Notes under the pieces: generated by a model
Databases searched by the model: none
What the model saw: only the letters and a program-made list of their open reading frames with translations
What the model was told of the DNA's origin: nothing
Origin: an uncultured delta proteobacterium
Lineage (GTDB): Bacteria; Desulfobacterota; Binatia; Binatales; Binataceae
Length of the DNA: 64,000 bases
Assembly (NCBI GenBank): GCA_963808235.1
Contig: CAWEEQ010000004.1
Span: 3,200,001 to 3,264,000, forward strand
Direction: 5' to 3'
Translations under genes and position numbers: made by a program
Shown: positions 31,203 to 31,861 of the stretch, piece by piece
Layout of the letters: each line of letters starts with the position of its first letter
Position numbering within the stretch: position 1 is the stretch's first letter

Positions 31203-31541
31203 CTAGAGCGCGTTGACGCCGCGCTCGCCGGTGCGAATCCGCACCACCTCTTCCATCGCCATTACGAAGATCTTGCCGTCGCCGATTCGGCCGGTCCGCG
31301 CCGCACGCTCGATCGTTTCGACCACCTGCGCCGCCAGCTCGTCGGAGACTATTATTTCGAGCTTGACCTTGGGCAGAAAATCGACGACGTACTCTGCGCC
31401 GCGGTAAAGCTCGGTATGCCCCTTCTGGCGGCCGAATCCTTTGACCTCGCTGACCGTCAGCCCCTGCACCCCGATACTCGACAAGGCCTCTTTGACCTCG
31501 TCGAGTTTGAACGGCTTGATGATTGCCTCGACCTTCTTCAT
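31203..31541 (-). CDS. glnB: P-II nitrogen regulatory protein
   Basis: Canonical 112 aa with [17 protein letters not shown] (Tyr51) and [10 protein letters not shown]. Confidence 0.97.
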
Positions 31542-31744
31542 AAGTCTCCTCTGGGTCCTCCGGTCCGCGCCGCGCGCTCGATCGTTTCGACTGCCCGTGC
31601 CACCAGCTCGTCCGAGACTACTATTCCGAGCTTCACCTTGCCTTTGACCTCGCTAACGCTCAGGCCCTGCACCCCGATACTCGAGAGCGCCTCTCTGACC
31701 TCGTCGAGTTTGAACGGCTTGATGATTGCCTCGACCTTCTTCAT
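31538..31744 (-). CDS. Truncated P-II paralogue lacking the T-loop and C-terminus (mini-protein or pseudogene)
   Basis: First 16 codons identical to glnB; 22-codon in-frame deletion; own GGAGGAG RBS; stop overlaps the glnB ATG. Confidence 0.7.
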
Positions 31745-31861
31745 AAGTCTCCTCCGGGTCCTCGTCTCAGCGTTGCCGCCCGGAATGATGCACCGGACTA
31801 CACGGCATCCAGATTACCATTCTCCTCGGATGCCGGCGGTTCAAGCCCCCGGTGCGCGTCG

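Follow-up and report, generated by a model that had tools for sequence, protein, structure and literature searches.

A T-loop-less partial copy of glnB directly upstream of glnB in an uncultured soil bacterium of the Binataceae

Background

In the genome of an uncultured bacterium of the Binataceae, the PII gene glnB is directly preceded by a shortened copy of itself, from which the T-loop has been removed in frame. Sequence comparison indicates that this copy, here called the mini-PII or simply the mini, is a genuine, recurrently formed and probably translated derivative of glnB. Its product is probably a small protein that the cell expresses, so that the copy would be more than debris. The main reading, which is given a probability of roughly 45%, is that the mini is a translated, signalling-blind PII core that may take a place in GlnB trimers, as structure models suggest.

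Few signal integrators are as widespread as the PII proteins, whose output is taken to rest on the three T-loops and the three anticooperative effector sites of each trimer.

The window is the whole stretch of DNA that was analysed, 64,000 nucleotides long. An initial annotation of it, made from the letters of the sequence, had already pointed out the mini and offered three readings without choosing between them: a signalling-blind subunit, a coupling leader for the translation of glnB, or a decaying duplicate.

The locus

The features of the locus are listed in Table 1. The glnB gene matches the Pfam P-II profile with 121 bits, over profile positions 1-102 of 102, and a search of the genome against itself found it to be the only full PII gene there. 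The mini ORF scores 54.6 bits against a cut-off of 25, where the best stretch covers profile positions 1-36 of 102 only. Both halves of the mini came up in the own-genome search, with E-values of 3e-13 and 6e-6, far above chance.

Table 1 Features of the glnB locus in the window.
Feature	Position	Strand	Description	Basis
glnB, canonical PII	31203..31541	-	112 aa	ORF list and Pfam P-II
mini-PII ORF	31538..31744	-	68 codons; GlnB residues 1-35, then 58-84, then tail GPRGDL	
ATGA overlap	31538..31541	-	mini stop TGA (31540-31538) and glnB start ATG (31541-31539)	direct reading
Shine-Dalgarno AGAGGAG of glnB	31546..31552	-	within the tail codons of the mini ORF	sequence; locus comparison
Shine-Dalgarno GGAGGAG of mini ORF	31749..31755	-	duplicated	sequence and alignment
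T-loop deletion junction	31637..31642	-	in-frame, 66 nt; mini codons 35 and 36 (GGC, AAG)	alignment
Tandem duplication 3' junction	31556..31564	-	glnB codon 84 (ACCGG) joined to AGGACCC..., 20 nt upstream of start	alignment
Leader/promoter-like element	31803..31846	-	CTTGAACC ... GAGAATGGTWAT	alignment of 44 upstream regions

When the mini ORF is aligned to glnB, the ribosome-binding region turns out to be repeated ahead of both frames (GGAGGAGACTT vs AGAGGAGACTT), and the first 16 codons are identical. The gap takes out exactly residues 36-57, 22 codons of the T-loop including Tyr51. Homology stops after residue 84 (..ARTG), and the tail that follows is a read-through of the duplicated ribosome-binding region. 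The initial annotation had described a tandem glnB duplicate including its ribosome-binding site, with a 66-nt in-frame deletion, an end after ARTG and a TGA that overlaps the glnB ATG; every one of these elements is borne out.

Over the 58 codons that are common to all copies, mini and glnB differ at 18 nucleotides, which the Nei-Gojobori method splits into 9.5 synonymous and 8.5 replacement differences. Seven residues are replaced (K17R, T29S, E62G, I64V, A70V, Q72R and V73A). The earlier count of about 10 synonymous and 7 replacement changes was thus accurate.

Besides Tyr51 and the T-loop, the mini lacks the B-loop motif (G87 D88 G89 K90 I91 F92) and the C-terminal arginines R101 and R103. 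The B-loop residues G87-F92, R101 and R103 are invariant in GlnB alignment A4. Going by the biochemistry of PII, a mini on its own would therefore be unable to sense ATP, ADP or 2-oxoglutarate, to be uridylylated, or to touch targets via a T-loop.

Distribution

In a six-frame DNA search, 9 of the genus's 47 species genomes proved to have a T-loop-less copy immediately ahead of glnB (G000, which is the window's genome, and G010, G012, G015, G022, G043, G052, G059 and G061). The 47 include two unpublished genomes, both without a copy. All nine copies are open and have 65-68 codons. A metagenome scan, with the alignment of the stand-alone family described below as query, gave at least 80 loci. 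Of the 80 that were kept, two have minis, contigs L073 and L077, with one open T-loop-less copy each; the other 78 hold full-length or ordinary PII genes.

In the wider family (165 genomes labelled Binataceae) there are two other genera with one carrier each. The first, G113, has a tandem copy of 80 aa that ends after codon 91 and has a T-loop gap of 11 residues. The second, G075, has a 67-aa copy that ends after about codon 85, with a gap of 20 residues; no second PII start is found within its 3.2-kb locus. All 13 T-loop-less copies from the DNA searches are open, with no frameshift or premature stop.

The copy is missing from 38 of the 47 genus genomes. Two of these, G004 and its sister G049, still carry a remnant, which consists of only the last ~35 nt of such a copy. 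In a tree of the neighbouring rsmB, which covers 44 genomes (all of the 47 except G009 and G018, where rsmB gave no match, and the unpublished G023), the carriers are scattered over the whole genus, and the window's genome is on a deep branch. This patchy scatter means that the mini has often been lost and is dispensable.

The initial annotation had suggested looking for the same deletion in relatives, and held that absence or frameshifts in sister genomes would speak against it. T-loop-less copies were indeed found in other species, though with other gap sizes. Absence is common, as the 38 genomes show, while a frameshift is found in none of the copies that are present.

A search of a public protein collection, from which 112-aa proteins were excluded, gave at least 42 T-loop-less clusters (at 90% identity) among the 120 hits listed. 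Among these listed hits, core lengths of 65, 66, 67 and 68 aa occur in 7, 24, 1 and 10 of the 42 clusters. The T-loop-less proteins are annotated solely as 'nitrogen regulatory protein P-II'.

Some other unusual PII copies turned up as well. P0051 and P0069, labelled Candidatus Binataceae, are truncated copies of 85 and 88 aa that keep the T-loop, but in which Tyr51 is replaced (..AEDVV.. and ..AGNVV..). Both end just after ..ARTG. By their sequences they are another route to a 'blind' truncated PII copy. P0054 (93 aa, one sequence, from a 916-nt contig) is a PII that has no T-loop, while its C-terminal half is complete. Either a mini and glnB have recombined here, which left a glnB that lacks the T-loop, or the short-read contig is a chimera. 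Two metagenome loci, L100 and L125, hold PII paralogues of full length that have diverged strongly; their T-loops are degenerate (for instance ..ELYKDREY.. and ..AVLYRGRACLVDS..) and their B-loops altered. In these related soil bacteria, the PII copies may be in decay or may have been neofunctionalised.

Origins of the copies

The window's copy ends after codon 84, resumes 20 nt upstream of the start and has a gap of 22 residues. The other ten genus-type copies end after codon 82, resume ~35 nt upstream, including CCAGTCTGAG (the TGA of which is their stop), and have a gap of 18 residues. Together with those of G113 and G075 this makes four gap sizes, all of them in frame, and Tyr51 is removed in each. 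A joint tree puts the window's mini together with its own glnB, with a support of 0.995. At third positions it is 0.18 away from that glnB, versus 0.33-0.40 from the other minis.

Since junctions and gap sizes differ between lineages, duplication followed by in-frame loss of the T-loop probably happened three to four times. Based on these comparisons, independent origins are more likely than a single one, with the proviso that gene conversion could blur the picture. A common origin of the window's copy and the other genus copies was considered. It is less likely, given that both junctions differ and that the window's mini clusters with its own glnB, a pattern that gene conversion could mimic.

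Four database proteins (P0052, P0053, P0075 and P0085) have the tail (..TGxxRGDL/V) and gap of the window's mini. A fifth, P0045, has the same tail, but its T-loop is intact and it is identical to GlnB over residues 1-84. It represents either a precursor state or a conversion revertant.

The stand-alone family

The window's genome contains a second T-loop-less mini-PII on another contig (G000:C2:218659-218847; L063 1660-1848, +). It is 62 aa long and ends at the same point as the mini. No Shine-Dalgarno sequence is visible ahead of it, and it lies in a stretch of lower GC with few genes.

This copy belongs to a family of stand-alone proteins of 61-64 aa, which form 8 database clusters with 69-78% identity. 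The 61-64 aa frame is kept in nine stand-alone sequences. For one stand-alone pair, located far from any glnB, dS is 0.63, dN 0.17 and omega 0.27, over 35 codons. One stand-alone copy, in G051 (C33, locus L071), has lost its 5' half. A scan of the genome contigs with the stand-alone motif pattern gave 14 stretches, consisting of this degraded copy and 13 chance matches. The 3' flank of the 62-aa copy still resembles a piece of the leader found at the genus-type tandem junction, so it probably derives from those tandem copies.

Predicted fold and complex

The AlphaFold2 model of the mini, built from 20 mini sequences, has a mean pLDDT of 83.8. It consists of strand-helix-strand-strand-helix (strands 2-8, 28-33 and 36-43; helices 10-22 and 45-60), and only a 6-residue tail is disordered. 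The fourth strand is missing, which leaves the ferredoxin-like fold incomplete. A Foldseek search with this model returns PII structures first, with TM scores of 0.85-0.87 and an rmsd of 1.2-1.5 A.

A model of two GlnB chains and one mini scores 0.65, against 0.00 for the best of three controls. The mark of 0.65 is reached by 116 of 157 solved complexes and by 2 of 215 mismatched pairs; our own alignments were used for the complex, so these calibration counts hold only roughly. Three runs have at least 93% of contacts in common, and the partner pLDDT is at least 81. The mini is predicted to touch the two GlnB chains with residues 2-8 and 26-38. The heterotrimer modelling that the initial annotation had proposed thus has the mini in a GlnB trimer, as a prediction. 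PII homotrimers have been solved already, so the good score may reflect those known structures; it demonstrates likeness, not binding.

The favoured chain of events would then be as follows. A partial tandem duplication set a copy of the ribosome-binding site and of codons 1-84 ahead of glnB itself, after which an in-frame deletion removed the T-loop. The result would be translated into a 68-residue PII core of strand-helix-strand-strand-helix. It would most likely act in the manner of a microprotein, by taking one subunit place in the GlnB trimer. Such a 2:1 trimer would have fewer T-loops and presumably one complete effector cleft only. This would blunt or retune signalling by the only PII of the cell. 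In this lineage, the ATGA overlap would additionally link the translation of the mini to that of glnB.

Expression context

In 41 of 44 loci, a strongly conserved leader element lies ahead of whichever PII-type start comes first, so that the mini is flanked by this leader on one side and glnB on the other. From that position it follows that both frames must be read from one transcript. In the window and across these 41 genus loci the leader reads CTTGAACC-N-GAGAATGGTTAT, which has a half-palindromic look (TTGAACCA / TGGTTAA). It may be a binding site for a regulator. The search for sigma-70 promoters in 30900-32400 gave 0 sites, an Rfam scan of 31000-32400 gave no match with E up to 1, and RNAalifold found no consensus structure over the 41 leader sequences. 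There is one terminator-like site inside glnB, no more than in shuffled sequences.

Further upstream, the motif TGGCATCGCGCTTGC is present at window position 32337-32351 (-). We take it to be the sigma-54-type -24/-12 promoter consensus. It lies upstream of a SnoaL-like gene (31862-32266), which is followed by the mini and glnB. Some relatives lack this SnoaL gene, and in them the same motif is found ~190 nt upstream of glnB, which means that glnB may also be read from a nitrogen-regulated promoter. Genes for partners are present in the genome as well: GlnD-type and GlnE-type genes and three Amt genes.

RNA data are sparse. Library X17 has one contig (148 nt, 5 mismatches) that matches 31486-31632; it runs across the start of glnB and takes in 91 nt of the mini. 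This is a hint of expression, in which DNA carry-over is possible. In runs X15 and X16 the body of the mini (31566-31669) is without cover at 85% likeness, and these runs are uninformative either way.

In this genome, the mini has kept a strong ribosome-binding site and a start codon. The GGAG core is altered ahead of 7 of the 11 genus-type minis and also in G113. The site of glnB is intact, and its Shine-Dalgarno element is kept ahead of glnB across the genus loci. No occlusion of the glnB ribosome-binding site is predicted in five mini-bearing or three single-copy loci. The predicted unpaired probability of the glnB Shine-Dalgarno sequence is 0.46-0.61 in the former and 0.42-0.52 in the latter, and predicted fold z-scores at these glnB loci range from -1.3 to +1.0. 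The 'translationally coupled' of the initial annotation is right only for the type found in this genome, with its ATGA overlap. The other ten genus-type tandem copies have no such overlap, with a stop 18-25 nt before the glnB ATG, and the unoccluded glnB site speaks against coupling as well.

These data bear on an alternative in which the peptide itself has no role. The mini would be a by-product, translated only via start signals inherited from glnB and through its place in the sole transcript by which glnB is reached. Selection would act for harmlessness, through removal of the T-loop and weaker initiation, and for a frame that stays open, on which ribosomes would cover the leader and spare glnB from polarity or poor initiation. 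Much of the locus is compatible with this. The mini sits between leader and glnB with no promoter-like site in between, its stop is always at or just before the ribosome-binding site of glnB, and its own start signal is eroded in most genus-type copies. Its tails vary between copies, its predicted interface is not specially conserved and it is frequently lost. In-frame deletions of the T-loop also fit selection against premature termination. The difficulty is that glnB has its own intact site and there is no occlusion to relieve, the unpaired probability being ~0.5 with or without a mini. A weaker start at the mini would in turn leave the leader exposed. In the stand-alone family no glnB follows, and the frame is nonetheless kept, at the omega given above. 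Finally, all 46 unique minis have A or G in place of E62, a residue that hardly varies in GlnB, and V or T in place of A70. Such replacement in every mini looks like the adaptation of a folded product. On balance, a peptide without a role is rather unlikely.

Selection and gene conversion

Over the aligned codons, dN of glnB is 0 in 34 of 36 pairs. Residues 1-84 of GlnB are 100% identical in at least 37 other genomes of the family, among the matches listed. Pairs of minis have omega values of 0.11-0.57. A codon model arrives at an omega of 0.246, with a log-likelihood of -866.1 versus -895.8 at an omega of 1, a cost of 29.7 units.

Silent divergence between a mini and its own glnB is a mosaic, with values from 0.10 to 0.71 between halves and species. 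Judging by this pattern, gene conversion between the two evidently does occur. Conversion from an invariant glnB biases a tree-based omega downward, so the count was restricted to private changes, in which a mini departs from its own glnB. There are 28 replacement and 22 silent changes of this kind, where a ratio of ~2.5:1 is expected. This corresponds to an omega of ~0.5, and the deficit has a one-sided p of 0.009-0.016 at a kappa of 2-3. The conversion-robust tests have modest significance, being based on 50 and 23 changes.

The dN/dS comparison that the initial annotation had called for comes out below 1 in the codon model, for the private mutations and for the stand-alone pair. The mini appears to evolve faster than GlnB but below the neutral rate (omega ~0.25-0.5, with conversion and small counts as caveats). 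G27, T29, E32 and G35, ligand-site residues that are invariant in GlnB, are variable in the minis. The predicted interface residues have no extra conservation in the minis, with an entropy of 0.51 versus 0.53 (p 0.82).

Can a neutral, slowly decaying duplicate explain all this? Its frame would be repaired by gene conversion from the invariant glnB, and copies that escape conversion would be deleted. The mosaic of silent divergence fits conversion, and so does the place of the window's mini next to its own glnB in the tree. The patchy distribution, two remnants and one degraded stand-alone copy look like decay, and the ligand-binding residues are relaxed. An absence of stop codons is weak evidence by itself, as just 2-4 would be expected by our estimate. 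Conversion cannot import private mutations however, and it is precisely these that are short of replacements (p ~0.01). Nor does it explain four different gaps that are all in frame (a chance of ~1 in 81 if they are independent), or zero frameshifts in 13 copies; these are harder to get by chance. The stand-alone copies share only 61% DNA identity with glnB, which makes conversion unlikely, yet their omega is still 0.27. Neutral decay is therefore less probable still than a peptide without a role.

Technical validation

An assembly artefact, in which a repeat was collapsed or duplicated in a metagenome-assembled genome, might be suspected because the source genome is a metagenome assembly of 4 contigs, several related assemblies have apparent frame errors in rsmB and database protein P0054 looks like a mini/glnB chimera, but it is contradicted by the data and has next to no probability: mini and glnB are set apart by 18 differences in 174 aligned bases and by the 66-nt gap, 8 other species and 2 metagenome contigs share the arrangement, and an independent DNA run has the identical sequence.

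The latter is soil DNA run X2, from another study. Its contigs match 31557-31647, 31618-31733 and 31204-31482 without a difference, and they tile the T-loop deletion junction, also without differences. The initial annotation had argued that the divergence of the copies speaks against a simple assembly duplication. This argument holds, and recurrence in relatives and the X2 contigs now stand beside it.

Assembly quality in the genus does vary. In G002, G051, G054 and G060, which are assemblies of few contigs, the rsmB homologue is split in two frames or has internal stops. This suggests indel errors there, and it makes unbroken mini ORFs in similar assemblies more notable. The bin G057 (81% complete, 4% contamination) has the glnB-rsmB neighbourhood twice, on contigs C48 and C26, which is likely a strain mixture and not a true duplication.

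Discussion

Between the three readings of the initial annotation, the evidence favours a translated product under weak constraint, while the subunit role comes from modelling. Against any function it can be said that the copy is missing in most species, that its ribosome-binding site is often eroded, that gene conversion takes place, and that the interface is not specially conserved.

A wider version of the blind-subunit reading would be that one soil family has repeatedly invented a microprotein antagonist or tuner of its sole PII. This would be a ligand-blind core, made from the same transcript, that mixes into trimers and so sets the number of T-loops and effector sites. E62 and A70 would have been reshaped in parallel, and one lineage would have escaped as a free-standing 61-aa family. 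Taken as a whole, this scenario is doubtful.

Full-text literature searches, covering main texts, brought up no natural PII gene ahead of glnB that is truncated or lacks the T-loop. There are related systems however, of which the E. coli GlnB-GlnK heterotrimers and the eukaryotic microProteins are nearest in concept. With canonical GlnB/GlnK (PF00543) the mini shares the N-terminal two thirds of the fold by homology, as it derives directly from the neighbouring glnB. It differs in having no T-loop with Tyr51, no B-loop, no strand 4 and no R101/R103.

GlnZ-delta42-54 in its complex with DraG (PDB 5ovo, rank 20 among the structural matches of the mini model) is a folded PII without the apex of the T-loop that is able to join a complex. 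It is laboratory-made, still has its B-loop and C-terminus and assembles into normal trimers, whereas the natural mini also lacks residues 85-112.

E. coli GlnB-GlnK heterotrimers provide a precedent for mixing: different PII-type subunits combine in one trimer and fine-tune signalling, as cited in PMC5448240. Both partners there are complete, ligand-binding, modifiable and encoded at separate loci, unlike the mini.

The microProteins of plants and animals are small, single-domain proteins (PMC9638782). They descend from multimeric proteins of larger size and exert their effect by binding to these relatives. This is also the proposed mode of action of the mini. Like them, the mini arose by duplication from a multimeric parent, lost a functional part and kept the oligomerisation surface: strands 1-3 and both helices remain, and the predicted contacts with GlnB run through this part. 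MicroProteins are described in eukaryotes, mostly for transcription factors, and the literature searches gave no bacterial PII example.

SbtB, PstA, CutA and the PII-like domain of NIF3 also belong to the PII superfamily; their loops are altered and they have new ligands. They are full-size, ancient families with complete ferredoxin-like folds, where the mini is a recent truncated glnB derivative that is confined to one bacterial family.

If the blind-subunit reading is true, a natural and recurrent blind subunit would be a ready-made experiment on how the subunit composition of PII relates to its signalling. It would also be a rare bacterial instance of the microprotein principle. Even if it has no function, the mini would be a clean example of a partial tandem duplicate that was tamed inside an essential transcript, by in-frame loss of its active loop, erosion of its start signal and gene conversion. 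In either case, the label 'nitrogen regulatory protein P-II' on the minis would mislead the metabolic reconstruction of these uncultured soil bacteria.
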